Assembly (NCBI GenBank): GCA_017936245.1
Contig: JAGBFY010000305.1
Coordinates: 1-31,471, forward strand
Length of the DNA stretch: 31,471 nt
Origin: Kiritimatiellia bacterium
Lineage (GTDB): Bacteria; Verrucomicrobiota; Kiritimatiellia; RFP12; UBA1067
Reading direction: 5' to 3'
The notes below the pieces were generated by a model, which was given only the letters and a program-made list of their open reading frames with translations, did not search any database and was not told the DNA's origin. Of this stretch, positions 1,443-19,437 are shown in pieces; position 1 is the stretch's first letter; each line of letters opens with the position of its first letter. The translations under genes were made by a program, and so were the position numbers.

Positions 1443-1474
1443 CGCTTTCACTCGCACGCCGGACATTGTATCAT
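1443..1474 (-). promoter_or_regulatory. Extended -10 promoter/leader module of the DUF4160-DUF2442 operon; 27/32 identical to 835-866
   Basis: Minus strand ATGA-TACAAT-GTCCG-NNN-TGCGAGTGAAAGCG; the TGA is also the integrase stop codon. Confidence 0.6.
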
Positions 1475-2874: not shown

Positions 2875-2898
2875 GCATCAAATAGGAACTATTCAACG

Positions 2899-3297
2899 AT
2901 GGAAGAACTGCCAGAGACCCTGAAAGCGGAAATCGAAGCGCTCGATTCGCTTGATGCCCGTGCCCTGAAGCGGCGCTATGCGGACATTGTCGCCGACATG
3001 CCCAAGTGCGCCCTGAGCAGTGTCCTGCGGGCCACCATAGCCTACCGGCTGCAGGAGCGGCACTACGGCCAGTCCCTCTCGAAGGAGGCAACAGAGTGGC
3101 TTGACGAGGCCGCCGACGACAAGCGGATGTTCCCGGACGGACGCAAGGTTGGATCGGGGGCGAGGTTTGTCCGGTTCTGGAAAGGCGAACGGTACGAGAC
3201 GACCGTCAGGGACGACGGGCGGTACGAATACAACGGCGAAATATACTCGTCCCTCTCGGCCGTGGCCAAGGCCATCACCGGGACGCACTGGAATGGC
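2899..3297 (+). pseudogene. DUF2924 domain protein, C-terminally truncated
   Basis: LR..IAYRLQE..YG...G.RFVR.WKG..YE..V..DG.YEYNG..YSSLSAVAKAITGTHWNG. After WNG the frame runs into the antisense of umuC (ORF track 2854..3531). Confidence 0.8.
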
Positions 3298-3528
3298 CAC
3301 GGCGGCGTACAGGCGCGACTTCTCGGCTGGCGGGGTGTCGTCGAAGAGATCGGTCTGGTGCGCCGTGCCGGGCTTTTCGAGGCCGAAGAACACGATGCCC
3401 GTCTTGCGGTAGCGCGTCCCCGGAACGTAGAGCGCGTCCACCTCCTCGCGGATGGCGCGGAGCATCTCGTTCGTCGCGTCCGTGGGCGCAGGGAAAACGA
3501 CCGTACGCCCCAGAAAATCGCACCCCTC
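3298..3528 (-). pseudogene. umuC: UmuC/Y-family polymerase C-terminal (little finger) fragment
   Basis: RTVVFPAPTDATNEML....LYVPGTRYRKTGIVFFGL......DLFD....KSRLYAAV; catalytic domain absent. Confidence 0.75.
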
Positions 3529-3534
3529 TAGCGA

Positions 3535-3888
3535 CATTGCTTCGCAATGCTCACTTCGTTTGGGGGATATTTCGCTTATCCCCGCGCCAACCATCGAGTC
3601 ACCCTCGACGCGCACGAAGTACGTGGCGGCCGGACGCTTCACCAGAAGTTCATTCAGGTCAAGAATATCCGCCGAAAAAGCGTCAGCTTTTGAGGGTAGC
3701 CGAAGGCCGAGCGGTTCCTGATACTGCTCGGCTGGCGACGGAAATCTCGCGCAGCACCTTGCGGTCCCTACGGGCGCTCGTTTCACTCGCGGCGCATCCT
3801 CTTGCGACCTTGCTTTGCAAGGCTCCTCGCTACGCTCGTCGGGCGACCCGACGCCTGCGGCGCGGGTGCATCCCCCTCCGAAGCGGAG
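3535..3888 (-). repeat. Cluster of about 11 short hairpins, many with GNA triloops
   Basis: Minus strand unless noted: CATTGC-GAA-GCAATG 3535-3549; AAAAGC-GTCA-GCTTTT (plus) 3676-3691; GCC-GAA-GGC (plus) 3699-3707; ACC-GCAA-GGT 3756-3765; CCC-GTA-GGG 3766-3774; GCGAGT-GAA-ACGAGC 3776-3790; CCTTGC-AAA-GCAAGG 3808-3822; CGAGC-GTA-GCGAG 3826-3838; GTCGGG-TCG-CCCGAC 3838-3852; CGCC-GCA-GGCG 3852-3862; CTCCG-CTT-CGGAG 3876-3888. Confidence 0.75.
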
Positions 3889-3938: not shown

Positions 3939-4081
3939 AGCGTTAATTATACAACAATACAGTTTTGGGAATTGGCGTTTTGTTTAACTCTTCGCTCAAA
4001 TTGGTAGCGGAGCGAGTATATGTGAGCGAGGGACATCAAAATGGTTTAAAAAATTGTTTCACATGGTAAGCATTTACCCAC

Positions 4082-4110
4082 TTGCGCGGTAAGATGTTTT
4101 ATGGTATAAT
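4082..4110 (+). promoter_or_regulatory. Strong sigma70 promoter of the R-M operon
   Basis: TTGCGC-17 bp-TATAAT with TG extension; SD AGGAG at 4130-4134. Confidence 0.8.
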
Positions 4111-4141: not shown

Positions 4142-5929
4142 GTGGAAAACCGTAATACAGAAGTTGAACGTCTTGCATGGAAGTTGGCAGACATGGAGAG
4201 GAACTACACATCGTCTCCATGCTTCTCTGCAATTTGTGGTGCCTTTGCAATGTATCTGGCGCAAGATGCGCGCGAAACTACCGACCTTATCGACATCCTA
4301 AAGAAGAACGAAGTCTCCGAATCAGTATTCGCTCTTGTGACGGATCGTATTGCCGATCATTGGGATCGCTATCAGCCACTCCTCACCACATATGCACAGG
4401 CAGATCTCTCCGATTCTATCTTCCTGAACCTTAATCGAGGCTTTATAGAGGGCGGACGGAAAAATGGTTTCTCGTCCTCTATTCCGATTATCGACCTTCT
4501 GCTTAAGACTTTGGCGATTAAGAAAGGCGATTCAGTATGTGACATTGGCTGTGCTGCAGGAGATTTCCTTCGGCGCGCTTATTACAAGGCATTCTCCGAT
4601 AACGAGGAGAATGATTTTTGTGGCATCGAGCGTGCAAAAGATATGGCTGCAATAGCCGAGATTTGCGCATGGTGTCTTGATGCAAAAATAAAGATTCATG
4701 GTGAGGATGCTTTTGCCGAAACCTTTGACGGTATTGGATACGATAAGGTTCTTTGCGATGCACCACTCGCCGTTCGCGGAATGCCACAGGAGCCCAATGT
4801 CCGTCGTTTCTTCCATGCTACATTTCCCGATTTTCCAGAACTTCGCACGGGGATGCAGGGTGATTGGCTCTTTGCCGCTCGCGCTGTTGCCGCGATAAAA
4901 AGGGACGGTCGCGCAGCGGTTGTTCTGTCACCGTCTGCCATGTTCGACAACCGTAACGAGGCATACAGACGGTATTTCATCCAACACGGTCTGATTGAAG
5001 CGGTTATCGAGCTGCCTTCAAATCTCATGATGTCCACCAACATTCCGACATACCTTGTTGTGTTCAGCCACGGCAACGATGTTGTCAAGATGATTCGCGC
5101 AGATGAACTCTGCTACGTCAGTCGCCGCAAAAAGGTTCTAGGGAAGCAGCACATTGATATCATAGCCGCGTGTCTTGGAGTGGAAGCCACTGCGGATACC
5201 AAGGGCTTAGATCGCTATTGCGCAACAGTATCGAGGGATGTCCTCCTCAAAAACGAATGCTCTTTGGCTGTCAAGCAGTACTTCGCCGACCCGGTCGCCA
5301 TCAAGGATGGCATCCCATTCGGCAATTTTGTAACCGATGCGAGACGAGGCGTTCTGCTCACCAGAGACGAGCTAGACCGCATCTTTACAAAATCTGAAAC
5401 GGATTGGCTCTACCTTTCCGTCAAAGACATTTCCGAGGGCGTTATCGGGGGAGACCTCATGTATTTGGGCAACATCCCGGAGCAAATGATTTCGTCCTGT
5501 GTCAAACAAAACGACCTTATCATATCACGTGTGAACGCTAGTGGAGCAGGATTCAAGGTTGCTGTCGCGGAAATCCCCGAAGGCAAGCGACTCGTCCCTT
5601 GCGAAAATGTGCTGATCGTCAGCGTCAACGAGGATGAGGCCGACCCCTATTACCTTAAGGCCTGCCTTGACAACGAATATGCACAGCGTTACCTCGACAA
5701 GCACTCATCTGGATCGGCGATTCGCATTCTCAGTTATCGTGATCTTGAATCACTCCCCGTGCCTAATCTTCCAATCGAGCGTCAGCGGGAAATCGGCCGT
5801 GTCTGCCGCGAAAACGCGCTCAATATCGTCTCGCTGCGAGACCAACTTGCAGCGGCGAAGGCATCTCTCGCTTCCGTGTTTGAGAACGCGGCGGCGGATG
5901 TTCTCGTCAAAAACGGGCAGGAGGGCTGA
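4142..5929 (+). CDS. N-6 DNA methylase-like domain fused to a single HsdS-type target recognition domain; motif IV divergent
   Basis: Motif I VCDIGCAAGDFL. The motif IV position reads DAPL (4757-4768) instead of NPPF/DPPY. GRAAVVL..S and IEAVIELP.NL...T.IPT are HsdM motifs. C-terminal ND.IISR...YL...L.S..AQ.YL......L....L..LPVP.LPIE.Q.EI is a TRD plus coiled coil. Confidence 0.8.
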   Translation: MENRNTEVERLAWKLADMERNYTSSPCFSAICGAFAMYLAQDARETTDLIDILKKNEVSESVFALVTDRIADHWDRYQPLLTTYAQADLSDSIFLNLNRGFIEGGRKNGFSSSIPIIDLLLKTLAIKKGDSVCDIGCAAGDFLRRAYYKAFSDNEENDFCGIERAKDMAAIAEICAWCLDAKIKIHGEDAFAETFDGIGYDKVLCDAPLAVRGMPQEPNVRRFFHATFPDFPELRTGMQGDWLFAARAVAAIKRDGRAAVVLSPSAMFDNRNEAYRRYFIQHGLIEAVIELPSNLMMSTNIPTYLVVFSHGNDVVKMIRADELCYVSRRKKVLGKQHIDIIAACLGVEATADTKGLDRYCATVSRDVLLKNECSLAVKQYFADPVAIKDGIPFGNFVTDARRGVLLTRDELDRIFTKSETDWLYLSVKDISEGVIGGDLMYLGNIPEQMISSCVKQNDLIISRVNASGAGFKVAVAEIPEGKRLVPCENVLIVSVNEDEADPYYLKACLDNEYAQRYLDKHSSGSAIRILSYRDLESLPVPNLPIERQREIGRVCRENALNIVSLRDQLAAAKASLASVFENAAADVLVKNGQEG

Positions 5930-5931
5930 AC

Positions 5932-6471
5932 GTGGCTGTCAGCCCTGATAGAATGGTCGAGATATTCGACCGCGTGAAAGACCGCCTCGAAGACGCCAAC
6001 GAGAACGGGACTCTTCACGAATTGCTATATTTGCTTGGACTTCAGGGTTTAATTGACGAGGATGAGGAAATCGATCTCGGTGAAACCGACAATGCCTACG
6101 GCGACATACTTGTCCTGGGGCGTTGCGACGCCAAAAAGCATCACCTACAGGCTGTAGCCTACGAATGCGGCTACGATAAGAAACGCGTCAAATTCGTGGA
6201 CTACGACGAAATGCAACAATTCGATTGCGCGTCGCTGTGCTACAGTATGCGCTACTCTGCCATAATGTGCGGTCCGGTGCCGCACAAGGCTGGCGACATG
6301 GGTGACACATCAAGCATCCTCGAAGAGTTGCGCCACCCCGAGCGTGGCTATCCACCCCTCGCAGAGCTGCGGGAATCAGGCGGCACAGGAGAATTGCGAA
6401 TAACAAAGACAACATTCAGATCGGCCATTGGCCAGTTGGAATCTATGGGCGCAATCAAGCCCAACAAATGA
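5932..6471 (+). CDS. Conserved hypothetical protein; helical N-terminus plus alpha/beta C-terminal domain (DUF2325/receiver-like, tentative)
   Basis: GTG 2 nt after the upstream stop, with SD GGAGGG; pattern ILVLG...IMCGPVPH...GYPP...ITKT.FR. Confidence 0.7.
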   Translation: MAVSPDRMVEIFDRVKDRLEDANENGTLHELLYLLGLQGLIDEDEEIDLGETDNAYGDILVLGRCDAKKHHLQAVAYECGYDKKRVKFVDYDEMQQFDCASLCYSMRYSAIMCGPVPHKAGDMGDTSSILEELRHPERGYPPLAELRESGGTGELRITKTTFRSAIGQLESMGAIKPNK

Positions 6472-6484
6472 AGGGAATAAAACC

Positions 6485-8881
6485 GTGGCAATCAGAAAGA
6501 ACGATTTGGACAACTCACTGTACAGCCTTTGCGACGAGCTTCGCGGCGGCATGGACCCCAGCCAGTACAAAGACTACGTGCTGACGCTTGTGTTTGTGAA
6601 ATATATCTCCGACCGCTACGCGGGGGTTAAATACGCACCAGTCACGATTCCCGAGGGGTGCTCCTTTGAGGACTTCAAACAACTCAGAAACAAGCCCGAC
6701 ATCGGCGAGAAAATCGACATTGCTCTCGCCAACCTCGCGGAGAACAACCAGATGCTCGCGGGCATGTTCAAGGATGTCCACTTCAACGACGAGACAAAGA
6801 TCGGCAAGGGCGACGAAATGGTCGACAAGCTTACAAGGCTCATCAACATCTTCTGCCGCAGCGAGTTCGACTTCAGCCGGAACAAGGCCTCTGGCGACGA
6901 CATCCTTGGCGACGTCTATGAAAATCTTATGCGCCATTTCGCCGTCGATAGCGGCAAATCCAAGGGGCAGTTCTACACGCCTGCAGAAGCATCGCGAGTC
7001 ATAGCCGGCATTCTGGGGATAAGCGAGATAACGGAGCGCGAGGAAGGATGGTCGATCTACGATGCAGCCTGCGGTTCAGGATCGCTCCTCATCCGCTCGG
7101 CAAACGAGGCGCCATGCCAGGTCGCCATATATGGACAGGAAGAGAACCAGACAACTGCCGGCCTTGCCAAGATGAATATGGTGCTCCACAATCTCCCTAC
7201 TGCGGAGATAAAGGTAGGCAACACGTTCTCCAGTCCGCAGTTTACGCACATTGAGGATGGCGAAGAGGTTCTCGACAAGTTCGACTTCGCCGTTCTCAAT
7301 CCTCCGTTCTCGCTCAAAAACTGGAAGTCCGGATACAAGGACTTCGGGCGGACCGAAGGGTATGGGGCGATGCCGCCAGAGAAGAACGGCGACTATGCAT
7401 GGGTAATGCACGTCCTGAAGTCGCTGAAACGAGAGGGCCGTGCGGCAATCATTCTTCCGCTTGGTGTCCTTTCGCGCGGCAACGCCGAGGAGACGATTCG
7501 CAAGACGCTCATCGACAAGGGTATAGTGGAGGGCGTCATCGCATTCCCGCCCAACATCTTTTTCGGAACCGGCATCGCCGCCTGCGTTATGGTGTTGGCA
7601 AAATCAGGAGCCGAGGAGCGCGAGGGCGTTTTTATGATCGACGCCGCGCGCGACTTCATAAAGGATGGCAACAAGAATCGTTTGCGCGAGCGCGATGTCG
7701 CGAAAATCGTCGCGACCTACCGCAGCCGCCGCGAGGAGACGCATTACTCGCGATTCGTGAAGTGGAACGAAATCAAGGAGAAGAACGGCTACAATCTCAG
7801 CATGTCCCGTTACATTGATTCAGGTGTGCGCGAGGATGTGCAGGATGTCGAAGCTCACCTCAAAGGTGGCATCCCGTCTGCGGACATCGAAGCGTTGTCC
7901 ATTTACTGGGATTCGCTCCCAAACATGCGGCAGGCTCTTTTCAAGCCACTTCGCAAGGGTTACGAAGTGCTCGTCGTGGAACCGCCGCAGGTTCGTGAGA
8001 CCATTCATGCGGAAGCCGCTTTCGCGATGTACTCCGATAGGGTCGACAAGGCGTTTAAGGCCTGGGCGCGCGAGGAAACGCCAGTGTTCTCCGACATCGA
8101 CGCCTATACGGACGCCAAGCACTTCATCGCCGAGCCGGCGCATGTGCTGATGGAGCGCTTCTCCAGCCTCAAGCTCTTTGATCCGTATGATGTCTATGAA
8201 GTGCTGCTAAAGTACTGGACTGACACGATGAACGACGATTTGCACCTTGTCGTTGCGAACGGATGGGAAGCCGGGCGCGAAATCGAGACGTTCTACAAAG
8301 AGACCGAGAACAAGAAGACGAAGCAAATCAAGAAGGTCGAGACTGGCTGGGATGGCCTTCTCATCCCCAGAAAACTCGTTGACGCGAGGTTTTTCAAGGC
8401 AGAGTCAGAGGCTGTTGCAAAGGCCGAGGCCGCGCTCGAAGCGGCAAAGGCAGAACTGGAAGACCTAGCCGCAAGCGGAGAGGCGCAGGACGAAGATTCA
8501 CAGGGAAGTGAAGAAGAAGTTCTGCGCTTCGCAGCTTGCGGCGAAGATCCGGTGCGTCTCCGCGCTTGCGCGGAGGAAAAGCGTAAAGCAGCATCCAAGG
8601 CTCTCAAGGCCGCACAGAAGAAGCTTGAGACCCTGGAAAAGGCGAAATATCCAACGCTCTCAATCGACGAAATCAAGGAACTCGTCGTTGCCGACAAATG
8701 GATTGCTACAGTCCATAGCGGAATAGACGAACTGTTTCGTTCGATTTCAGTTGCGCTCACGGAGCGCGTCTCGACCCTCGCCGAGCGTTACGGCAGCTCG
8801 CTGCCGGAGATCGAGGCGGCTACATCTGCTGCGGAAAAGAGCGTTTCCAGCATTCTTGCAAGAATCGGCTATACGGCATAA
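6485..8881 (+). CDS. hsdM: Type I R-M methyltransferase subunit M
   Basis: CDELRGGMD.SQYKDY, GQFYTP, YDAACGSGSLL, NPPF (7298-7309), Y.W..H. GTG start at 6485 preferred over the ORF-track start at 6428. Confidence 0.96.
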   Translation: MAIRKNDLDNSLYSLCDELRGGMDPSQYKDYVLTLVFVKYISDRYAGVKYAPVTIPEGCSFEDFKQLRNKPDIGEKIDIALANLAENNQMLAGMFKDVHFNDETKIGKGDEMVDKLTRLINIFCRSEFDFSRNKASGDDILGDVYENLMRHFAVDSGKSKGQFYTPAEASRVIAGILGISEITEREEGWSIYDAACGSGSLLIRSANEAPCQVAIYGQEENQTTAGLAKMNMVLHNLPTAEIKVGNTFSSPQFTHIEDGEEVLDKFDFAVLNPPFSLKNWKSGYKDFGRTEGYGAMPPEKNGDYAWVMHVLKSLKREGRAAIILPLGVLSRGNAEETIRKTLIDKGIVEGVIAFPPNIFFGTGIAACVMVLAKSGAEEREGVFMIDAARDFIKDGNKNRLRERDVAKIVATYRSRREETHYSRFVKWNEIKEKNGYNLSMSRYIDSGVREDVQDVEAHLKGGIPSADIEALSIYWDSLPNMRQALFKPLRKGYEVLVVEPPQVRETIHAEAAFAMYSDRVDKAFKAWAREETPVFSDIDAYTDAKHFIAEPAHVLMERFSSLKLFDPYDVYEVLLKYWTDTMNDDLHLVVANGWEAGREIETFYKETENKKTKQIKKVETGWDGLLIPRKLVDARFFKAESEAVAKAEAALEAAKAELEDLAASGEAQDEDSQGSEEEVLRFAACGEDPVRLRACAEEKRKAASKALKAAQKKLETLEKAKYPTLSIDEIKELVVADKWIATVHSGIDELFRSISVALTERVSTLAERYGSSLPEIEAATSAAEKSVSSILARIGYTA
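8464..8576. repeat. Three REP-like hairpin units (family A) in frame inside hsdM
   Basis: CCTAGCCGCAAGCGGAGAGGCGCAGGAC 8464-8491 (+); GTTCTGCGCTTCGCAGCTTGCGGCGAAG 8519-8546 (-); CTCCGCGC-TT-GCGCGGAG 8558-8575. Confidence 0.8.
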
Positions 8882-8894
8882 GGAGGCAATCGTG

Positions 8895-10430
8895 ATGACG
8901 AAAGAAGAGCTGGAGAATCTTCTGCGTGATGTCGAGTCATCTCGCGTGGAGCGTACGATATCGACGGCAGATACCGACAAGTTCTGTGAGGCCGTTTGTG
9001 CATTCGCGAATGACATGCCTGACAGTCGGCAGAACGGATATCTTCTTGTCGGAGTACATGATGATGGAAGCTTGAGCGGTTTAGTGGCAACCGACGCCAT
9101 GGTGAAGAATCTGGCTGCGATTCGTTCTGACGGGAATGTTCTGCCCATTCCGACAATGAATGTAGAGATATTTCATTTTGATTTGGGCGATGTCATCGTC
9201 GTTGAAGTTGTCCCCGCCATATTGCCGCCTGTCAGGTATCGTGGGCGCACGTGGATCAGAGTTGGCGCAAGAAAAGCGATAGCGACGCAAGAAGAGGAGG
9301 ATTTACTCATCGAGCGCAGACGTGCCAGATTCCCTACGTTCGACTCCATGCCATGCCAGCATGCAAAGCTTGAAGACCTAGATCTCGACCTGTTCCGATA
9401 CGGGTTTCTGCCAAAAGCGTTCGACGAGGGAGTGCTTGCCTCGGAAACGCGATCCATCGAGCGTCAACTTGAAGCGCTGTGCTTTTATTCAACGGATTAC
9501 AACTGCCCTACCAATGCGGGGGTGATTCTTTTCGGCAAGAACCTTCTGCGTTTTCTGCCTGGCGATTACATCCAGTTCGTCAGATTTGCAGGGATGACAA
9601 GGGCTACCGACATCGTGAACCAGCAGATGTTCAAAGGATGCCTTATGACCGTTTTGCCGGAGGTTGACACATTCATCAAGACGGCCATCGCAACCAATCG
9701 TCCCGTGCCGGTGACCGTTCTCCGCGAGAAAACCGTCTATGATTATCCGAAATGGTCGATCCGTGAACTGATGATGAACGCCATCATGCACCGCGACTAC
9801 CGCAGTACCGGTCCTACTATGTTCTATCAGTTCGCCGACCGGTTGGAGATCCTCAACTCGGGAGGGCTGTATGGACGTGTCAATCGTGACAACTTCCCCG
9901 ACGAAAACGATTATCGGAACCCGATAATCGCCGATGCAATGCGGACGCTTGGATACGTGAACCGCTTTGGTCGTGGTATAGGACGCGTGAGGGCAGAGCT
10001 TGTTGAAAACGGAAACGGAGAGCCTTTGTTTGATACTACGCAAATTGGTTCGTTCCGTGTCACCGTTTCATGGACTAAGTTTGCATCAGAGGTCAAAAGT
10101 TCGCAGAGAGGCACTGAAAGTTCGCAAAAAACGGCGGAAAGTGCGCAGACAGCCGACGAAAGTTCGCAGACCGTTGCCGAAAGTACGCAGAAAATTGAAC
10201 GGTGGATAGCGAACGCTTTGCCAACAGGGATTCGTTCTGACGCAAGAGCCAATATGGTTGAGGTAATGAAGCTTATTCACGCCAATTCAACAGAGACGGC
10301 TGAGTCTATGGCGGCAAAGATTGGCATCTCAATGCGCGGCGTCCAGAAAATTCTTGCGGCCCTTCAGAAACTAGGCTTGATTGAACGCATAGGACCTGAT
10401 TTTGGCGGACATTGGGAGGTGGTCAAGTGA
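8895..10430 (+). CDS. AlbA_2/Schlafen + HATPase_c_4 + C-terminal winged HTH protein (RecG-C-like ATP-binding regulator)
   Basis: ES.RVERT...VCAFAN....GYLLVGVHDDG; RELMMNAIMHRDY; RNPIIADAM..LGYVNRFGRGI; LIERIGPDFGGHWEV. SD AAGGAGG at 8880-8886. Confidence 0.88.
   Translation: MTKEELENLLRDVESSRVERTISTADTDKFCEAVCAFANDMPDSRQNGYLLVGVHDDGSLSGLVATDAMVKNLAAIRSDGNVLPIPTMNVEIFHFDLGDVIVVEVVPAILPPVRYRGRTWIRVGARKAIATQEEEDLLIERRRARFPTFDSMPCQHAKLEDLDLDLFRYGFLPKAFDEGVLASETRSIERQLEALCFYSTDYNCPTNAGVILFGKNLLRFLPGDYIQFVRFAGMTRATDIVNQQMFKGCLMTVLPEVDTFIKTAIATNRPVPVTVLREKTVYDYPKWSIRELMMNAIMHRDYRSTGPTMFYQFADRLEILNSGGLYGRVNRDNFPDENDYRNPIIADAMRTLGYVNRFGRGIGRVRAELVENGNGEPLFDTTQIGSFRVTVSWTKFASEVKSSQRGTESSQKTAESAQTADESSQTVAESTQKIERWIANALPTGIRSDARANMVEVMKLIHANSTETAESMAAKIGISMRGVQKILAALQKLGLIERIGPDFGGHWEVVK
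10096..10190 (+). repeat. 21-bp imperfect tandem repeat (4.5 units) coding an (E/K)S(S/A/T)Q heptad linker
   Basis: Units start AAAGT(T/G/A)CGCA at 10096, 10117, 10138, 10159 and 10180. Confidence 0.85.
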
Positions 10431-11674
10431 AATCGGCAAAGTTCAAAGATTCGCCCCTCGGCCCCATCCCGCAGGATTGGGAGGTGAAGCGGCTGGGGGA
10501 GATAGGCGAACCACTCATGTGCAAACGAGTCTTGAAGCACCAGACATCAGAACAAGGGGATATTCCTTTCTACAAGATAGGAACTTTCGGCAAAACTCCA
10601 GATGCATATATTACAAGATCACTATTCGAGTCGCTAAGGTCGAAGTATCCATTTCCACGCAAGGGAGATTGTTTGATTTCGGCCGCAGGAACAATTGGCC
10701 GAGTTGTAGTGTACAATGGAGAAGATGCATATTTTCAAGACTCAAACATTGTTTGGATTGACAATGACGAAGCTGTCGTCACAAACGAGTACCTTGCATT
10801 GTGCTATACGCTTATGAAATGGCAATCGGAAGATGGCGGAATCATTAGCCGACTGTACAACGCCAATCTTAAAGCACAAATCATTGTTTGTCCTCCTCTC
10901 CCCGAACAGCAACGTATAGCGGAGGCACTCGGCGAGGTCGACAAACTAATCGAAAGCCTTGACGAGCAGATCGAGAAGAAGCGCCTCATTGCCAAAGGCG
11001 TAGCGCACGACCTCCTCTCCGGCAAAAAACGCCTGCCGGGATTCAAGGGGGCGTGGCGAGAAGTTGCATTTAAAGCCGCATTTATTTCGCTTGGAAATAA
11101 CACTTACGCAAGAGAGTGCCTATGTGGGTATTCGACAAATGCCTACGACATCCATTACGGTGATGTGCTGATTCGCTTTGGGGCGGTTGTGGATTTTTCA
11201 TCCGATTACATTCCACGTCTCAAGGACGGAATAAAGCCAAATAAAGACTTCCTGCAAAATGGCGATATCGTGTTTGCCGATACGGCAGAGGATGAAATGG
11301 TCGGTAAGGCCGTAGAGGTTCGCGGTCTCGGTGATGGTAAGGCGGTCTCAGGCCTTCATACGATGGCCTGTCGTCCACGCGCGGATATGTTCGCCCCAAG
11401 ATTCTTGGGGTATTATCTGAATTCAGATTCTTACCGCAAACAATTGCTACCGCTTATTACTGGTAGCAAAGTTTCTTCTCTGTCACGAGCAAACTTTGAA
11501 AGCAGCATATTGACAATGCCTGATGTAATCGAGCAGCAGGCAATAGCCGACCTTCTCAGCGAGCAGGATGCCGCCATCGCCGCGCTTGAGGAGAAGCGCG
11601 AGAAATACATGCGCATCAAGGAAGGCATGATGCGCGACTTGCTCACTGGCAAAGTGAGGATGAAAGGAGAATGA
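10427..11674 (+). CDS. hsdS: Type I R-M specificity subunit S (two TRDs)
   Basis: FKDSPLGPIP.DWEVK.LGE, PPLPEQQRIA, EQQAIA.LL, K.GMM.DLLTGK.R; GTGA overlap with upstream gene. Confidence 0.95.
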   Translation: MKSAKFKDSPLGPIPQDWEVKRLGEIGEPLMCKRVLKHQTSEQGDIPFYKIGTFGKTPDAYITRSLFESLRSKYPFPRKGDCLISAAGTIGRVVVYNGEDAYFQDSNIVWIDNDEAVVTNEYLALCYTLMKWQSEDGGIISRLYNANLKAQIIVCPPLPEQQRIAEALGEVDKLIESLDEQIEKKRLIAKGVAHDLLSGKKRLPGFKGAWREVAFKAAFISLGNNTYARECLCGYSTNAYDIHYGDVLIRFGAVVDFSSDYIPRLKDGIKPNKDFLQNGDIVFADTAEDEMVGKAVEVRGLGDGKAVSGLHTMACRPRADMFAPRFLGYYLNSDSYRKQLLPLITGSKVSSLSRANFESSILTMPDVIEQQAIADLLSEQDAAIAALEEKREKYMRIKEGMMRDLLTGKVRMKGE

Positions 11675-12726
11675 GGATGGAAATACTACCAGTAAAAGCA
11701 AAACTCAACGTTGACGTGAAGGCGGACCTTACACCGGCTGTACAAGCTACAGCTGATACGATTTCAACTTTACACAAGGGGGTCGGTAAACTTCTGAATG
11801 CGTTTGTTGGCCCATGGATTGCCAATCGAGAACGGGCTATAGCATTGCTTCAAGCACAGACGCAGCACGATTGCCAGCAGATTGCCGAAGGTGAACTTAT
11901 CTATCAGAAGGGAATGCTTTTGTCTGTTCCTGATCAGAGACCATTGCCAAATGTTTATGAAACGATTCACGGGCTTAACCATCAGGCTGATGCGAAACGG
12001 CTTGAAGCGGCGATTCGCGAAGCGGTACGACAGATTTCCGAAGTTCCATCCGACCAAATTTCTGATGATCCGATTTCCCAAACCTTTTTCAACCATTGGC
12101 GTCGAGAGGCGGAGATGATTGACGAAGATGAACTTCGCCAGTGGTGGGCGAGGATTCTTGTAGAGGAAGCCAAGAAGCCTCATAGTATATCGCCTCGGAC
12201 TCTTGATGTGGCCAGGAGGCTCTCAAAAGAGGAAGCATTGTTGTTTGTGAAGATGGTTAAAGGAGAGGTCGATGGTATTGTCCCTGTTGATTCACAAGGG
12301 CATCCTCAATATATAAGTTATGCGGAAGCTTTAATGTTGCAAAGTGCTGAATTAATATTCGCGCAACAGTCACGAACTACGTTTAGGTTAGCATATGATA
12401 TTGATGAGAAACATAAGGGTACATGTATCCCTCTACACAATGCAGGCTTGATGCTGTGCGCACACAAGAAGGATTTTTCGGCAGATTGTTATATTCTTAC
12501 AGATGCTGGTCGTAGACTTTTGTCAATTGCTCAGGAGCCAAGGAGAGTGGAAGACTATATTGCAATAGCCACTAGGCTATCTTCGCTTTCTGGGAATACG
12601 ATCATGTCTTTGCACCCAATCATGCAAAGGCAGGGAGCGCAACTTACCTGGTCGAATATCCCATTATGGACGAGCGAACGAGCGGATGAAGATAAGAAAG
12701 AAGATGACAAGGCGTCGAGGCCTTGA
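11671..12726 (+). CDS. DUF2806 domain protein
   Basis: F..W.REAE.I.EDELRQ.WARIL.EE.KKP.SIS.RTL.....LSKEEA..F; ATGA overlap with hsdS. Confidence 0.75.
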   Translation: MRMEILPVKAKLNVDVKADLTPAVQATADTISTLHKGVGKLLNAFVGPWIANRERAIALLQAQTQHDCQQIAEGELIYQKGMLLSVPDQRPLPNVYETIHGLNHQADAKRLEAAIREAVRQISEVPSDQISDDPISQTFFNHWRREAEMIDEDELRQWWARILVEEAKKPHSISPRTLDVARRLSKEEALLFVKMVKGEVDGIVPVDSQGHPQYISYAEALMLQSAELIFAQQSRTTFRLAYDIDEKHKGTCIPLHNAGLMLCAHKKDFSADCYILTDAGRRLLSIAQEPRRVEDYIAIATRLSSLSGNTIMSLHPIMQRQGAQLTWSNIPLWTSERADEDKKEDDKASRP

Positions 12727-12774
12727 ATAAGCAGCAAAGTGAAGTTACGTAATACAAGTAAGAAGGTATGATTT

Positions 12775-13524
12775 ATGTTACATAATATCCTACATGAGCT
12801 AGCACATGTGGTGACTGTCCTTGACGCGCATCAAGGAAGTTGTATGGTTTTGTTGACTTTTGCACTTGTTGCATGTGGCATTATCTCGTGCTACATAGCC
12901 GCGAGAAACATTAAGTTAATGCGTAAGCTTGAGGCGAACAGGTCAAGTCCGTATGTCGTTATAGAAACAACACATAGTATCCCGTTCTATGGTGTGCGCA
13001 TAGTCAATATGGGGTTGACGACGGCAAGAAATATCACAGTTGAGACAGATCCGAAGGTACATATCGTATTTCCGCGTTACCAGAAACCAATCGGATTTCT
13101 GGATAGTAAGCTTGCTGTACTGGTGCCGCAGAAAGAGTATGCGTGTGATATTGGGAGTTGGGATAACATTAAGAAAGAATGCCCGTCAATGATGTATCGT
13201 TGTATCGTACGATATGAATCGGAGTGGGGCGAGAAGTATGAATCTGAATATGTGTTGGACTATTCGATCTATGAGCATCTTATTCATCGCGAGGAACGAA
13301 CGCTTACAGATTTGACGAAGAAATTCGAAGAGTTCTGTCGAGAGTTTCGACACTTTGCAACTGGACATTATAAGCCGCATGTCTTGACAGAAGATTATGA
13401 TAAATACAATGAGAAGATGGAACAGATGATTAAAGGCTTCAAGGCAAAGAAAAATGATGCCTCTGTGGTCTCGCAATCGCCAGATCAAAGGGATGAAACG
13501 AAAGGAGCGGGTGATGATAAATGA
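12775..13524 (+). CDS. Hypothetical protein with N-terminal transmembrane helix and beta-rich soluble domain
   Basis: Hydrophobic MVLLTFALVACGIISCYIA, then NRSSPYVV...IVNMGLTTARNI; AT-richer than flanks. Confidence 0.7.
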   Translation: MLHNILHELAHVVTVLDAHQGSCMVLLTFALVACGIISCYIAARNIKLMRKLEANRSSPYVVIETTHSIPFYGVRIVNMGLTTARNITVETDPKVHIVFPRYQKPIGFLDSKLAVLVPQKEYACDIGSWDNIKKECPSMMYRCIVRYESEWGEKYESEYVLDYSIYEHLIHREERTLTDLTKKFEEFCREFRHFATGHYKPHVLTEDYDKYNEKMEQMIKGFKAKKNDASVVSQSPDQRDETKGAGDDK

Positions 13525-14143
13525 TAATGACATCAAACTAGTGTTGGGAAGAAACAGCTTTGGCCTTTTGTCGCAAGAAGACGACCCGTGGATTCGGTAT
13601 TCATTTGATATCCTTTTGGATGAGGAGGATGGCCCGGGGCAGATTGTCGGCAGTATGCAAGCATCTAAGCTAAGTTACGGGGAGATGTCTCGGCGCAAAT
13701 TAGCATTATGGATGGCGTTTGACGATTTTTCAATGGAGGCATCAGAGTGTTATGATGTATTATTTACCAAGAAAGGCAATCTTCGAAAGGCGTTTTGGCA
13801 CCAGTATTATGGACTGGAGGAATATTTCGCCAGGGATTTTCATTTCCTTGAACGGATCGAGGTGAATGAGAATTTCAAGGGCAACGGCATCTCGGGGATT
13901 GCTACTCGGATCTATCTTGAGAATTTTGCGAATTCTGACGATGTGGCTTATTTGAAAACGTTCCCCCTACAACATGAGAGTCGGTTCGGTGATAAACCTT
14001 ATAATCGCGAGTTTAGGGGTGACTTCAAGGCGAGTCAAGCGAAGCTTTGTAGATATTACGCACATCTTGGATTTCGCCGAATTGGCAAGACGGAGCATTT
14101 CTTCTTCGTTGTTGATCATTTTTTGTCGCACAGGAAGGATTGA
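13514..14143 (+). CDS. GNAT-family acetyltransferase-like protein
   Basis: FLERIEV...FKGNGI (motif A) and KL..YY..LGF (motif B); SD AAGGAG at 13502-13507. Confidence 0.7.
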   Translation: MINDNDIKLVLGRNSFGLLSQEDDPWIRYSFDILLDEEDGPGQIVGSMQASKLSYGEMSRRKLALWMAFDDFSMEASECYDVLFTKKGNLRKAFWHQYYGLEEYFARDFHFLERIEVNENFKGNGISGIATRIYLENFANSDDVAYLKTFPLQHESRFGDKPYNREFRGDFKASQAKLCRYYAHLGFRRIGKTEHFFFVVDHFLSHRKD

Positions 14144-14151
14144 TGTAAGCC

Positions 14152-15519
14152 ATGACCGGTGAGCAGAAAAACGCATTCAAGCAAGAGGTCACGCACCGCA
14201 TGGGGCGGCGGCTGAACGGCTGGGATTATGCCGGGCGCGGCATATACATGATTACCATCACCATTGAGGGTCGCAGGCCTCTCTTGGGGCGGCTCGTGAA
14301 GATTGGTGGTGAGTGGTCGGTTGAGCTGAGCGCGGCGGGTTGCATTGTGCAAGATTGCCTTGCCGAGATTCCTATGCAGTGGCCCGGCGTGTCGTTGATT
14401 GCCGTGCAGCTGATGCCGGATCATCTGCATTTCATAATCTTCGTTGAGCGTCAGCAACAGAAGCCTCTGGGGGCGATAGTGGGCAGCCTAAAGGCGAAAA
14501 GCACTTCGAGATATTTGGCCGCGCAAGACCTGGCCGCAAGCGCCAAGGCGCAGAACGGGGCGAAGTTCTGGGCGCAAGGCTATGTGGATCTGGTGCTTCT
14601 CAGGCGCGGGCAGCTTGAAAAGATGATTGCCTACCTGCGCGACAACCCGCGGCGGCTTGGGGTAAAGCGCGAGCATCCCGATCTGTTCAAGGTGTTGCGC
14701 GATGTTGAGGCGAAGGGCATGCATTTTAGCGCCATCGGTAATCATTTTCTCCTTGCAGCGCCGGTGATATTCCAGGTTCAGTGCTCGCGCTCGTCTTTCG
14801 CCTGCCGCCGCGAGAGGCTAGATACTTCGCCGCAAGCGGCGAAGCGCAGAATCGAGCTGCAAGCGCCAAGGCGCAGTACTTGGCGAATACTGCGCGATGC
14901 GCAGTGCAGGCCACTTGTTGAGAAGATCACGCCTGAATTTGAGGCAAAGGCAACTGCCGCACTTGAGGCCGCGAAGCGTGGTGCGGTGCTTATATCACCC
15001 TGCATCAGCCACGGTGAGCGTGAAATCGCGCGGCGGGCATTTGAGGCTGGTTATCGTATCATCACCCTCCAGAACAAGGGCTTCTCACCGATATACAAGC
15101 CGGGAGGGAAACTCTTCGACAAATGCGCGGCGGGTAATTTGCTGATACTTGCGCCGATCAACTGGCCATACATCCCAGGTGAGAAGCCGCCTACGCGCGA
15201 ATCATCGCTTGTATTAAACCGCATCGCGCAGTTCCTTGCTGGCGAAGGCGCAGCTGAAATTGACTACAAGGGCGCGACAATGCGCGGCATCGACGACATG
15301 GTGAAGCACCTTTGCGCGAAAGGCCTGGCCGCAAGCGGCCAGGCGCAGAACCAAGTGCAGAACAGCGCAAACGGCCAGTCGCAGAACAGCGCCTGCACCA
15401 AGGCGCAGAACGAGTCGCAGAACAGCGCAAGCGCCAAGAAGCAGCCCAAGAACGCAAACAACAAAGCGCAGTACTGCGCTTCGCCGTGTGCGGCGAAGAA
15501 TCAAGGAAAAGAACTATGA
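14152..15519 (+). CDS. REP-associated tyrosine (Y1/HUH) transposase fused to a DprA/Smf (SLOG)-like domain, with a repeat-derived tail
   Basis: RL.GWDY...G.YMITI, MPDHLHF (HUH), FW..GY.D, YLRDNP (catalytic Tyr). C-terminal half AIGN.FLL...QVQCSR...GAVLISPCIS.GE..IAR.A......GF...YKP.G..FD.CA.G.LLILAP. Confidence 0.85.
   Translation: MTGEQKNAFKQEVTHRMGRRLNGWDYAGRGIYMITITIEGRRPLLGRLVKIGGEWSVELSAAGCIVQDCLAEIPMQWPGVSLIAVQLMPDHLHFIIFVERQQQKPLGAIVGSLKAKSTSRYLAAQDLAASAKAQNGAKFWAQGYVDLVLLRRGQLEKMIAYLRDNPRRLGVKREHPDLFKVLRDVEAKGMHFSAIGNHFLLAAPVIFQVQCSRSSFACRRERLDTSPQAAKRRIELQAPRRSTWRILRDAQCRPLVEKITPEFEAKATAALEAAKRGAVLISPCISHGEREIARRAFEAGYRIITLQNKGFSPIYKPGGKLFDKCAAGNLLILAPINWPYIPGEKPPTRESSLVLNRIAQFLAGEGAAEIDYKGATMRGIDDMVKHLCAKGLAASGQAQNQVQNSANGQSQNSACTKAQNESQNSASAKKQPKNANNKAQYCASPCAAKNQGKEL
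14529..14556 (+). repeat. REP family A unit inside the RAYT catalytic domain
   Basis: CCTGGCCGCAAGCGCCAAGGCGCAGAAC, in frame (LAASAKAQN). Confidence 0.8.
14825..14879 (+). repeat. REP family A unit plus partial tandem copy inside the RAYT C-terminal domain
   Basis: CTTCGCCGC-AA-GCGGCGAAG-CGCAGAAT (perfect 9-bp stem), then GCTGCAAGCGCCAAGGCGCAGTAC. Confidence 0.85.
15324..15498. repeat. REP family A pair enclosing degenerate GCAGAAC tandem repeats at the RAYT 3' end
   Basis: CCTGGCCGC-AA-GCGGCCAGG-CGCAGAAC 15324-15351 (+); GTACTGCGCTTCGCCGTGTGCGGCGAAG 15471-15498 (-); 18-bp perfect palindrome AAGCGCAGTACTGCGCTT 15464-15481. Confidence 0.85.
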
Positions 15520-18500
15520 AAGACACTACAACCCCAATTGGCGCACCGGAACTTGCAACGCAGGCCCGGCTCATCGAGATGTTCGAGCAAGATCTCGGTT
15601 ATGAGTTCCTCGGCAACAAGACAGATGAGGATAACTCCAACATCATTCCCGAACTTCTCAGGGCGAATCTCCTTAACCGAAAAGATAGTGAAGGGAAGCC
15701 GCTATATTCGAAACGTCTTGCGGACGCGGCGATCGTGAAGCTTCAGTCGGAAGCGAAGGACCTCTCATCGGGGCTTTATGCTGCGAACAAGGCCGTCTAT
15801 TCTATCCTGAAATACGGTGCCAAAGTTCAGGACGAGAAAGGCGCAATAAAGACGGTCATGCTTATCGATTGGGATGAAGTCGGTAATAATGATTACCAGA
15901 TAGCAGAGGAAGTGACGGTCGCTGGGCTATATGACAAGAGACCCGATCTCGTCATCTATGTGAACGGCATTGCGCTCGGCCTTGTCGAACTCAAGCGCGC
16001 GAGCGTGTCGGTTGTCAAGGGAATCGCCCAGAACATCGCCAATCACACGAAGGAGATGTTCATCATGCCGTTCTTCACGACGATGCAGCTTCTCACGGCT
16101 GGCAACAACAGCGAGGGGTTGAGATACGGCACGATTGGCACTCCGGCGAAAAAGTATCTCGAATGGAGGCACGATGGATTTGGCCAGCATCCTGATGAAC
16201 GCGATCCTGTTGACGTGCTAATCGAGTCAAAAGCGGCGAAATTCGAGGAGAAGCTCGATTCGCAAGCGTATGAGATGTTCTCGCCGAGCCGCTTCCTGGG
16301 CCTCATACGCAACTTCACGATATTCGACCGGGGCAAGAAGAAGGTTGCCCGCTACAGTCAGTATTACGGCATCAAACGCACCCTTGCGCGTACGGCAAAG
16401 CACGAGGGTGGAATCGTATGGCATTCGCAGGGTTCCGGCAAGTCTATCGAGATGGTGCTTCTCGCCAAGCACGTCATCGAGCGCGATCACGACGGACGCG
16501 TTCTTATCGTCACGGACCGCGAAGAACTCGACGAACAGATCGAAAAGCTATTCATCGGTGTTGACGAGAAGATTCGTCGCACAAAGAGCGGTAAAGATCT
16601 GATTGACGCCATCAACGACACGGCGGGCGGCAATCTCATATGCTCGCTCATCCACAAATTCGGCAAGCATTCTGGCAAAACGGACGAATCCGAGGACAAG
16701 CTCGATGAAGAGGCTGTAGCCAAGTACATCGAGGAACTCAAGGTGGCGCTTCCAGCCGGATTCAAGGTCAAGGGCAATTTCACTATTTTCGTCGATGAAT
16801 GCCATCGCACACAGTCCGGTCTTTTGCATCAGGCGATGAAGGCAATCATGCCGGACGCCATTCTTGTCGGCTATACGGGCACGCCGCTCTTGAAGAAGGA
16901 CAAGAAGACGTCGATGGAGGTGTTCGGCCCTTATATTCACACCTACAAGTTTCCAGAGGCCGTGCGTGACGGAGTGGTTCTCGATCTTCGCTATGAAGCG
17001 CGCGACATCCCGCAGGATGTTACCGCCAAGAAGGAAATTGATGCTTGGTTCGAGGCAAAGACCGCAGGGCTTACTGACAGGGCAAAGGCGCGCCTGAAGG
17101 AGAAATGGGCTACGATGCAGAATGTCGTATCCTCCAAGTCGCGTCTCGGAAAGATTGTCGAGGATATCATTCTCGACTTCGCCACGAAGCCACGCCTCAT
17201 GAACGGCTCTGGCAACGCGATGCTCGTCGCGGATGATATCCTCACCGCCTGCAAGTTCTACAACCTATTCCACGAGCACGAGTTCAAGGGGTGTGCAGTC
17301 ATTTCTTCGTATGTTCCTGCGCCAAGCGACATCTCTACCTCGGTGGTCGATCCAGAACACCGGACGGATGAGGAGGTCTAGTACGGCACCTACTGCAAGA
17401 TGATTGGCGTCAAGCCGGGCGAAGATGTAAAGTCAATAGCCAAGAAGGTCGAGAACTTCGAGAAGGAGGCGAAGCGTCAGTTCGTGGATGAGCCGGCCAA
17501 CATGAAGCTTCTCATCGTCGTGGACAAGCTTCTGACTGGATTCGACGCGCCGCCTTGCACATATCTTTACCTTGATAAGCACATGCAGGATCATGGGCTC
17601 TTCCAGGCGATCTGCCGCGTAAATAGACTTGACGACGAGACCAAGGACTTCGGCTATATAGTGGATTACCGCAAGCTCTTTGGAGATTTACAGGATTCCC
17701 TTGCGATGTACTCAAGCGACAAGGCGTTCGCCGGGTACGATGCGGAGGATGTGGATGGCTTCGTCAAGAATGTCGTCAAGGAATCAAGCGAGCGCTTCAA
17801 AACAATCCTCGCCGCACTTGACGCACTCTGCGAGGGTGTCGAGTCTCCCGCACAGGGGCCGCAGTACCGCGCGTATTTCGGCTGCCAGGGCGCGGACACG
17901 CCCGAGGAGGAGACGCAATACGGACAGAGGCGCGAGAAGCTCTACCGACTCGTCGGCGCACTTGTACGCGCGTATGCCGTGTTCGCTCCTCGCATGGAGA
18001 GCGCCAAGGTGCCGCAAGCCGACAGGGATTTCTACGCTGCCCGCGTGAAGTTCTATCTCGAGCTTCGCAACGACATCGGCCAGGCGAGTGGTGATTTCCT
18101 CGACCTCAAGCCCTACGAGCCAGATATGCGTTATCTCATCGACACATACATTGCCGCCGGCGAGAGTGAACGCTTGACCACACTCGAGAACTTCTCCCTT
18201 TTGGACTTCATTGATGATAAATCAAATGGCAACGAGTCTGAGTTCATGTCAAAGGAGGAGCAGGACAATGTCGCCGAGACGATAGAGAATAACGCGGCGA
18301 AAGAACTCGTCCACAAGAGGCTCATGAACCCTGCGTTCTTCGAGCGCATGTCTGTAGTCCTCAAGAAACTCATTGAAGACCGCAAGGCTGGCGTGATCGA
18401 ATACAAGAAGCTCCTTGAAGAATACAAAAAACTTGCGGAGGAGATCAAGAATCCATCCGTATCGGGGCGCTATCCTGCATCCATTGCCGGATCGCCCGTC

Positions 18501-18701
18501 AAGGAGGCGCTCTACGACAACTTTGGCGAGGACGAGAAGCTGACACTTGCCCTGCACAAGGCGTTTCTTGGCTCCAAGCTGCAAGGCTTCAAGTACAACA
18601 TCGCCAAGCAGAACCAGATCAAGAGCGCGCTTTTCGCCGTTCTCAAGGATGACGACAAGGTTGAAGCCGTGTATAAGATACTTGAAGCACAGGAGGCGTA
18701 G
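15516..18701 (+). pseudogene. hsdR: Type I R-M restriction subunit R with one in-frame TAG (17379-17381)
   Basis: RPDLVIYVNGI.LG.VELK, WHSQGSGKS, VDECHR, GYTGTP, IVVDKLLTGFDAP, QAICRVNR. ORFs 15312..17381 and 17400..18701 are in the same frame, separated only by the TAG. ATGA overlap with RAYT. Confidence 0.92.
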
Positions 18702-18705
18702 GGAA

Positions 18706-19437
18706 GTGGAACTGAAAGTCGGAGACGTGCCTGTTGCGGTTCGCCGAAAGGCAATCAAGCACATGCATCTGTATGTAGAACCGCCTGACGGCAGTGTTCT
18801 CGTCAGCGCACCCAAAGAGGCGTCTGACGAGGAGGTGCTGTTTTTCGTGCGGGAGAACTTCGGCTGGGTTCTGCGGCAACGCAACGGAATGCTTGCGCAG
18901 CGACGCCAGCCGCCGCGCAAGTACACCTCCGGCGAAACCCACTACCTCTGGGGCGAACAGTATTTTCTTGAACTCGTCAAACAGGACGGCTGGGGTGGAA
19001 TTAAGATTTCCGGCAATACGCTGACCATGCTTGCGCTGCTGGAATCGACAGAGAAGTCACGTCGCGATTACATGACGGAGTGGGAGCGCTCGCTCCTTTC
19101 AGATGCGGTAAACCGCACCTTGCCGCTCTGGGAGAAGAGGACTGGACTGAATGTCCAACGATTCTCCATCATGAATATGAGGCGAAGCTGGGGTAAATGC
19201 AACCCCAAAAAGGAGAGCGTTATCTTCAATCTCCAGCTTGTCCGAAAGCCGAAGGAAGCGCTCAACTACATAATCCTGCACGAGCTTTGCCACCTCAAGA
19301 CCCGCACACACGGCAAAGAGTTTATCGCGCTTATGGATCGCTTCATGCCCGACTGGCGCGAAGTTCGCAAGCGCCTCAATGATTCACCACTTGATTACGT
19401 GAGCGGCGAGAAATCAAAAGATGGAGAGGCAACCTGA
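18706..19437 (+). CDS. M48/YgjP (DUF45, SprT-like) zinc metallopeptidase typical of type I R-M loci
   Basis: RKAIKHMHLYV.PPDG.V.VSAP, MRRSWG.CN, YIILHELCHL...HG..F...MD..MP.WR; GTG start at 18706. Confidence 0.9.
   Translation: MELKVGDVPVAVRRKAIKHMHLYVEPPDGSVLVSAPKEASDEEVLFFVRENFGWVLRQRNGMLAQRRQPPRKYTSGETHYLWGEQYFLELVKQDGWGGIKISGNTLTMLALLESTEKSRRDYMTEWERSLLSDAVNRTLPLWEKRTGLNVQRFSIMNMRRSWGKCNPKKESVIFNLQLVRKPKEALNYIILHELCHLKTRTHGKEFIALMDRFMPDWREVRKRLNDSPLDYVSGEKSKDGEAT

Follow-up and report, generated by a model that had tools for sequence, protein, structure and literature searches.

Few transcriptional regulators of type I R-M operons have been described: RptR (PMC12255303) and, from Mycoplasma, a single C protein (PMC12707154). 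RptR is the first gene of its R-M operon, with repeated palindromes over its own promoter (PMC12255303), and C proteins are likewise operon-heading regulators with palindromes over their own promoters (PMC12707154). A different group is formed by methylases that carry their own specificity domain. M.DrdI, M.XmnI and M.XcmI are homodimeric M~S enzymes with interrupted palindromic targets (PMC3874165), an engineered M-half-S fusion dimerises and has a palindromic target (PMC6158711), and an M-half-S fusion of V. vulnificus (PDB 7EEW) is of the same dimer/interrupted-palindrome type according to a paper that cites it (PMC12429846). These proteins combine an M domain, one TRD and a dimerisation helix; they are active, carry NPP(Y/F/W) at their catalytic motif and serve a nuclease. 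For the half-S homodimer Esub1 of Streptococcus pyogenes (PDB 8VSQ/8VSR), the authors who described it propose a role as transcription factor or repressor, and a phage protein binds in its DNA cleft (PMC11754733). In Ronin a type I methylase core is reused without need of catalysis (10.1101/2023.04.06.535777), and in the m6A/m4C type I system PacII M1M2S two HsdM-like genes lie in one operon, their products M1 and M2 carrying NPPF and NPPY, resembling each other and having no TRD (PMC9613975).

The window analysed here is a stretch of 31,471 nucleotides from a Kiritimatiellia bacterium, in which a restriction operon is headed by a gene for a 595-aa protein, M*-TRD, with a gene for a 179-aa protein directly behind it (Table 1). 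The sequence-only reading of this DNA had described the two as a translationally coupled pair at the head of a complete type I R-M operon. Both open reading frames (4142-5929 and 5932-6471) are present and both start with GTG; the gap between them is 2 nt and a GGAGG ribosome site lies within the 3' end of the 595-aa gene. The canonical hsdM, hsdS and hsdR are also all found downstream on the same strand, but they are interrupted by other genes, hsdM being separated from hsdS by a Schlafen/AlbA gene and hsdS from hsdR by variable cargo. Like the RptR island (PMC12255303), the operon ends in an M48 peptidase gene. The hsdR codon at 17379-17381, TAG in the window, is AAG in the homologous locus L001 and in 4/4 sequencing runs; the TAG is likely an assembly consensus error or a rare allele, leaving the operon intact in the population, and a broken operon was rejected since the stop is not seen in the runs. 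As in a mobile island, M*-TRD is preceded by integrase, DUF2924 and UmuCD-like remnants, and the neighbourhoods of homologous loci bear out a defence-island context. A locus whose 595-aa protein is 99% identical comes from a Kiritimatiellae MAG, and the source genome holds a second M*-TRD copy on contig C194, directly before hsdM and with no 179-aa gene.

Table 1. Features of the M*-TRD operon and its promoter (positions are those of the window).
Feature	Position	Strand	Basis or remark
Half-site GGTTT, degenerate, 22 nt 5' of operator	4043..4056	.	inferred, 22-23 nt phasing in homologues
Predicted operator, interrupted palindrome GGTAA-GCAT-TTACC (GGTW-N6-WACC)	4065..4078	.	conservation in homologous promoters
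Predicted sigma-70 promoter, TTGCGC, 17 nt, TG-extended TATAAT	4082..4110	+	sequence reading and homologues
Second site GGTAA-GATG-TTTTA, degenerate, within promoter spacer, 23 nt 3' of operator	4088..4101	.	inferred
M*-TRD, 595 aa: HsdM-like fold, single TRD, C-terminal helix	4142..5929	+	profiles, model, alignments
Motif IV, DAPL replacing NPPF; aa 206-209 (C-DAPL)	4757..4768	+	read from sequence and alignment
Single TRD (~aa 390-542) and conserved-region-like helix (aa 545-577)	5309..5872	+	profiles, model
179-aa acidic protein: two N-terminal helices and receiver/flavodoxin-like alpha/beta domain	5932..6471	+	
Canonical hsdM (NPPF)	6488..8881	+	ORF-finder start 6428, likely start 6488
Schlafen/AlbA_2 gene with RecG-like C-terminal domain	8751..10430	+	likely start 8895
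hsdS, two TRDs	10412..11674	+	profile matches
Variable cargo: DUF2806 protein, two unknown ORFs, Y1/REP-type transposase-like gene	11671..15519	+	
hsdR with in-frame TAG at 17379-17381	15312..18701	+	profiles, relatives, runs
YgjP/M48-like metallopeptidase, last gene of operon	18547..19437	+	

The 595-aa protein matches the N6_Mtase profile over aa 115-382 (E 1.8e-24), and type I specificity models match it over aa ~416-586 only, in keeping with the fusion to one TRD that had been read from the sequence. Its AlphaFold model (pLDDT 90, pTM 0.79) ends in a long terminal helix (545-577), and its best Foldseek matches are to HsdM chains of type I systems and to 7EEW, the M-half-S fusion. The protein therefore has the M domain, one TRD and C-terminal helix of an M-half-S fusion, and its helix is predicted to serve dimerisation. 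Its MTase-TRD fold is not a small HTH or RptR-type helical fold. The best PDB sequence match of the family profile's TRD region is Esub1 (E 1.3e-17), with HsdS close (2e-16); unlike M*-TRD, Esub1 has no methylase domain and is encoded away from hsd genes. The family is large, with at least 763 clusters at E <= 1e-60 (7994 candidates scored) in a search seeded with more distant members, and its members, where named, are labelled 'N-6 DNA methylase' or 'M protein'. The Bacillota branch was sampled through one plasmid record, contigs of a viral collection and protein matches; a class-wide search around G040 gave no further loci.

The M*-TRD gene is maintained by purifying selection: whole-gene dN/dS is 0.06-0.20 in 9/10 pairs, the remaining one being undefined, which rules out a decaying pseudogene. 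Conservation is highest in the TRD (mean identity 32%, against 26% in the MTase domain) and, in the dN/dS set, where the comparison of neighbours covers the HsdS proteins, it stays 93-99% identical where the TRDs of the adjacent HsdS swap to 18-25%. Such conservation fits a domain with a fixed target.

Motif IV is, as the sequence-only reading stated, DAPL in the 595-aa protein, and its loss extends across the family. The canonical form [NDS]PP[YFW] is found in 0/43 fusions dereplicated at 70% and in 25/25 canonical HsdM proteins, these controls having been picked by profile or Pfam label and not by motif; in the first alignment it was present in 0/50 rows. The 43 fusions carry 29 different tetrapeptides at this position, EPPL being among the variants of the family. 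The FYTP motif is lost in the 595-aa protein and in all the fusions (0/43 vs 21/25 canonical HsdM), and the motif VIII aromatic is Met in the window copy. The same reading had considered the SAM-binding motif to be kept, and this holds in part: D134, G140 and E163 are retained, but GxG has Ala in place of its first Gly (DIGCAAG). Among the 43 fusions these three residues are kept in 39-40, and G138, Ala in the window copy, is Gly in 24. Fusions with the acidic residues kept may still bind SAM, to judge from the alignment. The distant-seeded search listed 120 homologues, of which 119 had not been counted before; among these 119 matches, canonical motif IV occurs in 0/119, NYPF in 105/119, of Bacillota type, and HPPW or HPPY in 6/119. 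Since NLPY is active in DIMT1, so that N-x-P-aromatic can work, and EPPL is inactive in METTL14 (PMC10915109), loss of catalysis appears likely for the DAPL branch to which the window belongs, and inactivity is less sure for members with NYPF.

The sequence GGTAAGCATTTACC at 4065-4078 forms an interrupted palindrome that ends 3 nt 5' of the predicted -35 box. A consensus scan missed the promoter at 4082-4110 because this box matches at 3/6 positions, and the promoter/terminator scan of the window as a whole was at chance level; many homologues of M*-TRD have TTGACA at -35. The pattern GGTW-N6-WACC has a single match in the window, which is chance-level for the window taken alone, and the evidence for an operator is its conservation across homologous promoters. 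The pattern was first read as GGT-N8-ACC adjoining the -35 box in 26 upstream regions, and it was then counted in the 200 nt upstream of loci grouped at 70% identity. In the first set of 22 groups with 200 nt upstream the strict form occurs in 13 and a relaxed form in 18, counts that are not fully independent, given that 26 loci served to define the pattern and that relatives have a common ancestry. Other spacers (N2-N12) occur in 0-1/22 of the same groups, shuffles of the upstream set gave a mean of 0.19/22 with a maximum of 3 in 2000, and GGT-N8-ACC ranked first among 576 trimer/spacer palindromes tried. Upstream of canonical hsdM the strict form was found in 0/13 regions. The four relaxed misses of the first set comprise L047-L049, which fall outside a 39-member core clade (SH-aLRT 99, in a quick tree made without bootstrap), and L017, a true miss. 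In total the core has the operator in 16/22 groups in its strict form and 21/22 in its relaxed form; the groups not used in setting the pattern have it in 6/8 and 8/8, respectively.

Loci found later carry the same site. L154, L155 and L157, assigned to the core by profile score and motif and not by the tree, each have two strict sites, one 5' of the -35 box and one 3' of the -10 box, and two or more sites arose by shuffling in 0/5000 for each; L156 came without upstream sequence. On a Subdoligranulum record of 267 kb, 2/3 matches to a stricter operator flank the M*-TRD promoter. Where the 179-aa gene is absent, the operator is strict in 7/10 core groups and relaxed in 9/10, and therefore it follows M*-TRD. 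Its position is also regular: in 11/18 groups it starts 13-17 nt 5' of the first base of the -35 box. Further copies, spaced by about 23 nt, lie near -37, +7, +19 to +22 (on the -10 box), +30 and +42 to +45, and there are secondary score peaks at 22-23 nt. The sites flank or overlap the promoter, and in several homologues they lie on the -10 box, in the spacer or just 3' of the start. Of six distant plasmid homologues, L047 and L166 have two copies of a one-base-longer palindrome, AGTAW-N5-WTACT, noticed post hoc, L165 has one copy and L048, L049 and L167 have none; no clear site pair is seen in the latter four (a single site in L165) or in the core group L017. A reverse scan of viral contigs for the operator with TTGACA returned 71 loci; in none of them was M*-TRD found within 2.5 kb or the partner nearby, a figure given without a chance expectation for that collection.

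M*-TRD is thus the first ORF of its operon, and conserved palindromes lie over the promoter from which it is predicted to be expressed. By analogy, an M-half-S dimer is expected to bind a fixed 14-bp bipartite palindrome, and since M-half-S fusions dimerise on interrupted palindromes, M*-TRD most likely binds the site at its own promoter. The reading preferred here, to which a probability of roughly 0.65 is given, is that M*-TRD binds this palindrome and regulates the restriction operon, most likely as an autorepressor. It would dimerise through its C-terminal helix, as suggested by the precedents of the M.DrdI-type enzymes, the engineered M-half-S fusions and Esub1; the dimer would bind GGTW-N6-WACC at its own promoter and would repress the type I restriction/defence operon that it heads. 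Repression is suggested by the placement of the sites in several homologues, where they coincide with the -10 box, the spacer or the stretch right after the start; a site adjoining the -35 box could instead activate, as with C proteins. Of the roles offered before, those of a pseudo-methylase sensor or DNA-binding scaffold, the scaffold is strengthened, in the form of predicted binding to a promoter operator, and the sensor-plus-effector scheme is only partly supported. Such a role would be like that of RptR and the C proteins, yet M*-TRD belongs to neither group: the members of both are small, with helical or HTH folds and short sites, and M*-TRD is a methylase-TRD derivative of 595 aa whose predicted site is bipartite and 14 bp long. 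From M.DrdI and 7EEW it differs in its degenerate motif IV, in the full HsdM/HsdS that usually follows and in the concentration of its site at its own promoter.

The 179-aa protein had been taken as the effector of a fixed two-gene module, and neither part of that proposal was supported. Its gene follows M*-TRD in 13/23 core groups and is missing from 10/23, from the copy on C194 and from strain contigs of two runs (X5 and X13, the latter an RNA run that covers the region as contigs), in which 5927 is joined to 6486. No toxin, nuclease, membrane feature or hydrophobic segment was found in the protein, and linkage is the sole positive evidence for an effector role. It is acidic (pI 4.8), with 16 acidic and 4 basic residues in aa 1-57, and its family, which is unnamed, has 768 representatives at E <= 0.001 and two invariant residues, G114 and H118. 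Pfam, NCBIfam and PADLOC have no family for it, Foldseek gave no match to its model at E <= 0.001, VIA returned generic receiver/LacI-type folds (Z up to 7.2), a common arrangement, and its Atlas neighbours are without a name. A phospho-receiver role appears unlikely from the model, because the third strand of the domain ends in Gly instead of Asp. A possible resemblance to DUF2325 (PF10087) was not supported: there is no Pfam match, and hhalign to the DUF2325 neighbour of L166 gave a probability of 0.3%. The same domain also occurs at the end of larger proteins (about 310-450 aa), coiled coils being present in many of them. The profile of the 179-aa partner has matches in 5/401 genomes of the phylum sample; a plasmid search with the homologue P0110 gave none. 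The gene is nonetheless under constraint (dN/dS <0.2 in 8/9 pairs), and among loci fetched with it the stand-alone homologues are directly behind M*-TRD in 21/21 cases, three other loci having longer fused forms without M*-TRD. The best guess for the 179-aa protein, and the weakest step of the analysis, is a role as modulator of M*-TRD; it may also be a passenger, and it is optional in either case.

Membership of the described systems was considered for the pair, and its lack of assignment to any of them is supported by best PADLOC and NCBIfam scores far below the cut-offs. Mad2 of the MADS system shows weak profile matches to M*-TRD, but the scores are 24 against a cut-off of 720 for MAD2 and 34 against 400 for MAD5, with no other mad matches among the scanned proteins. 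The operon shares with PacII two HsdM-like genes, but it is not of the M1M2S type, given DAPL, the presence of a TRD and 22% identity between the 595-aa protein and the downstream HsdM. Ronin lacks hsdR and has a separate NPPF HsdM, a full HsdS and a membrane effector of 61 aa (10.1101/2023.04.06.535777), none of which applies to the M*-TRD pair; in the window hsdR is present and the partner is soluble, of 179 aa and optional.

The conserved palindrome might be read in other ways. M*-TRD could be a working methylase whose catalytic motif is non-standard; it would methylate the palindrome, or some other site, and regulate its promoter by means of the mark. R-M promoters under methylation control exist (PMC12707154), NYPF predominates among the further homologues listed, the activity of NLPY in DIMT1 is a precedent and the SAM-site residues are kept in about 40/43. 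This is nevertheless unlikely, given the diversity of motif IV, the loss of FYTP, the occurrence in the family of a tetrapeptide inactive in METTL14 and the absence of both aromatics from the window copy. Furthermore, the 5' half-site of gamma-class enzymes is methylated at a top-strand base (PMC3874165), and neither A nor C is fixed on that strand in the invariant GT/GGT; because it provides no methylatable top-strand base, binding without methylation fits the operator sequence. That another factor, such as a host regulator, binds the palindrome while M*-TRD has a separate binding role is the least probable of the readings considered. The link between protein and site is one of sequence association, and A/T-rich inverted repeats are common near promoters; the site, though, accompanies M*-TRD in Kiritimatiellota, in other classes of the phylum sample, in Subdoligranulum and in phage-like contigs, is absent from the canonical hsdM promoters, and changes its spacer with the M*-TRD clade.

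Two further readings give M*-TRD a part in defence itself. It could be a decoy like Ronin, which demonstrates the principle (10.1101/2023.04.06.535777), restraining the 179-aa protein and freeing it as an abortive-infection effector when a mimic of the Ocr/ArdA type binds. The strict linkage of the stand-alone 179-aa homologues would be explained by this, as would pairs without hsdM (L003, L014, L054 and L157), and the natural fusion 7EEW has been crystallised with Ocr; the frequent lack of the partner, the generic folds and unassigned family of a protein with no hydrophobic segment, and an operator left unexplained make it doubtful, slightly more so than an active methylase. Improbable, although not quite the least so, is an accessory type I subunit that adds symmetric specificity for HsdR or modulates HsdM. 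Here hsdM follows in 14/23 core groups (within the available sequence, some loci ending early), and engineered M-half-S fusions do restrict together with HsdR (PMC6158711). Yet an unmethylated target with 99 sites in the source genome of 3.54 Mb would be self-destructive, and GGT-N8-ACC is only joint lowest there of nine spacers (468 vs 468-644). The type I systems downstream belong to different families with neighbouring HsdM proteins in different clades, the TRD shows no diversification, and M*-TRD stands alone in the phage-like contigs L071 and L072. Heading unrelated type I families or standing alone fits better with a portable regulator than with a subunit.

An extension of the autorepressor reading is a decoy repressor, in which the M*-TRD dimer would resemble M2S, the target of DNA-mimic anti-restriction proteins, so that Ocr/ArdA, SAM depletion by a phage enzyme or the acidic 179-aa partner would free the operator and induce the operon. 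This is tentative, and carries perhaps one chance in a few; sensing of Ocr/ArdA by M*-TRD is putative.

Neither a degenerate HsdM-TRD fusion acting as a regulator nor the GGTW-N6-WACC operator was described in the main text of the openly accessible papers searched, PMC12839542 and 10.1101/2023.12.13.571470 among them. What is likely to be new is a predicted regulator of an R-M operon built from the methylase itself. Surveys of methylomes and of defence systems may wrongly count this large family among the methylases, because the names given to its members are 'N-6 DNA methylase' or 'M protein'. If the regulator reading is true, an R-M enzyme has been reused as the regulator of its own system, and the predicted operator renders that claim testable; anti-restriction proteins would also have a direct route by which to induce defence. 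Were the decoy repressor to hold, the detection of counter-defence would be wired to transcription, with the operator in hundreds of gut-anaerobe loci.

The in-frame TAG within hsdR is likely to be an assembly error, since both the related locus L001 and all four of the sequencing runs compared with the window read AAG at this position. The remnants lying 5' of the operon mark the edge of a mobile island. The variable cargo found between hsdS and hsdR is not present in L001 and is shared in part with L052.

Features of the window and of loci with homologues of M*-TRD (the HsdM-like, likely inactive methylase with one TRD) or of its 179-aa partner
Locus	Position	Feature
Window	1471-3786	Remnants of integrase, DUF2924 and UmuC/UmuD-like genes
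Window	11671-15519	Cargo: DUF2806 protein, two unknown ORFs (249 aa, about 207 aa), Y1 transposase-like gene
Window	17379-17381	TAG in hsdR
L054	3057-7884	Non-R-M cluster: unknown proteins (677 aa, 362 aa), DUF6339, PARG/macro-domain gene
L012	10578-14482	Inserted sbcD/sbcC-like genes
L046	10780-11000 (approx.)	Fragment of hsdM start
L063	7688-8683	Partner-domain fusion
L062	113-1090	Partner-domain fusion
L015	6891-8093	Partner-domain fusion
L166	6238-6561	DUF2325 gene
L071	278-2035	Stand-alone M*-TRD
L072	7632-9416	Stand-alone M*-TRD
L069 (G000:C194)	6599-8341	Second M*-TRD, 580 aa, motif YPPF

The M*-TRD and partner pair also heads the L054 cluster. Judged by eye, the 677-aa protein of this cluster is similar to the product of a 661-aa gene that lies 3' of the type I operon in L053. 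Inserted genes separate the pair from hsdM in L012, and the short fragment between M*-TRD and hsdS in L046 suggests that hsdM was deleted in that record. The partner's alpha/beta domain is C-terminal to other domains in three fusions; that of L063 is flanked by two AAA_15/DUF3696 ATPase genes, and that of L015 is divergent to a type I operon.

The DUF2325 gene of L166 lies 5' of a distant M*-TRD homologue, in a type I operon on a plasmid of Salimicrobium; the promoter has two AGTAW-N5-WTACT sites. The stand-alone genes, in phage-like contigs, have two or three predicted operators each and are neighboured by HNH and ParB-methylase genes or by a TubZ-like gene.

The second copy in the window's own genome lies immediately 5' of an hsdM, lacks the 179-aa gene and has the predicted operator GGTTTAAAGAAACC; cross-regulation could occur between this copy and that of the window.
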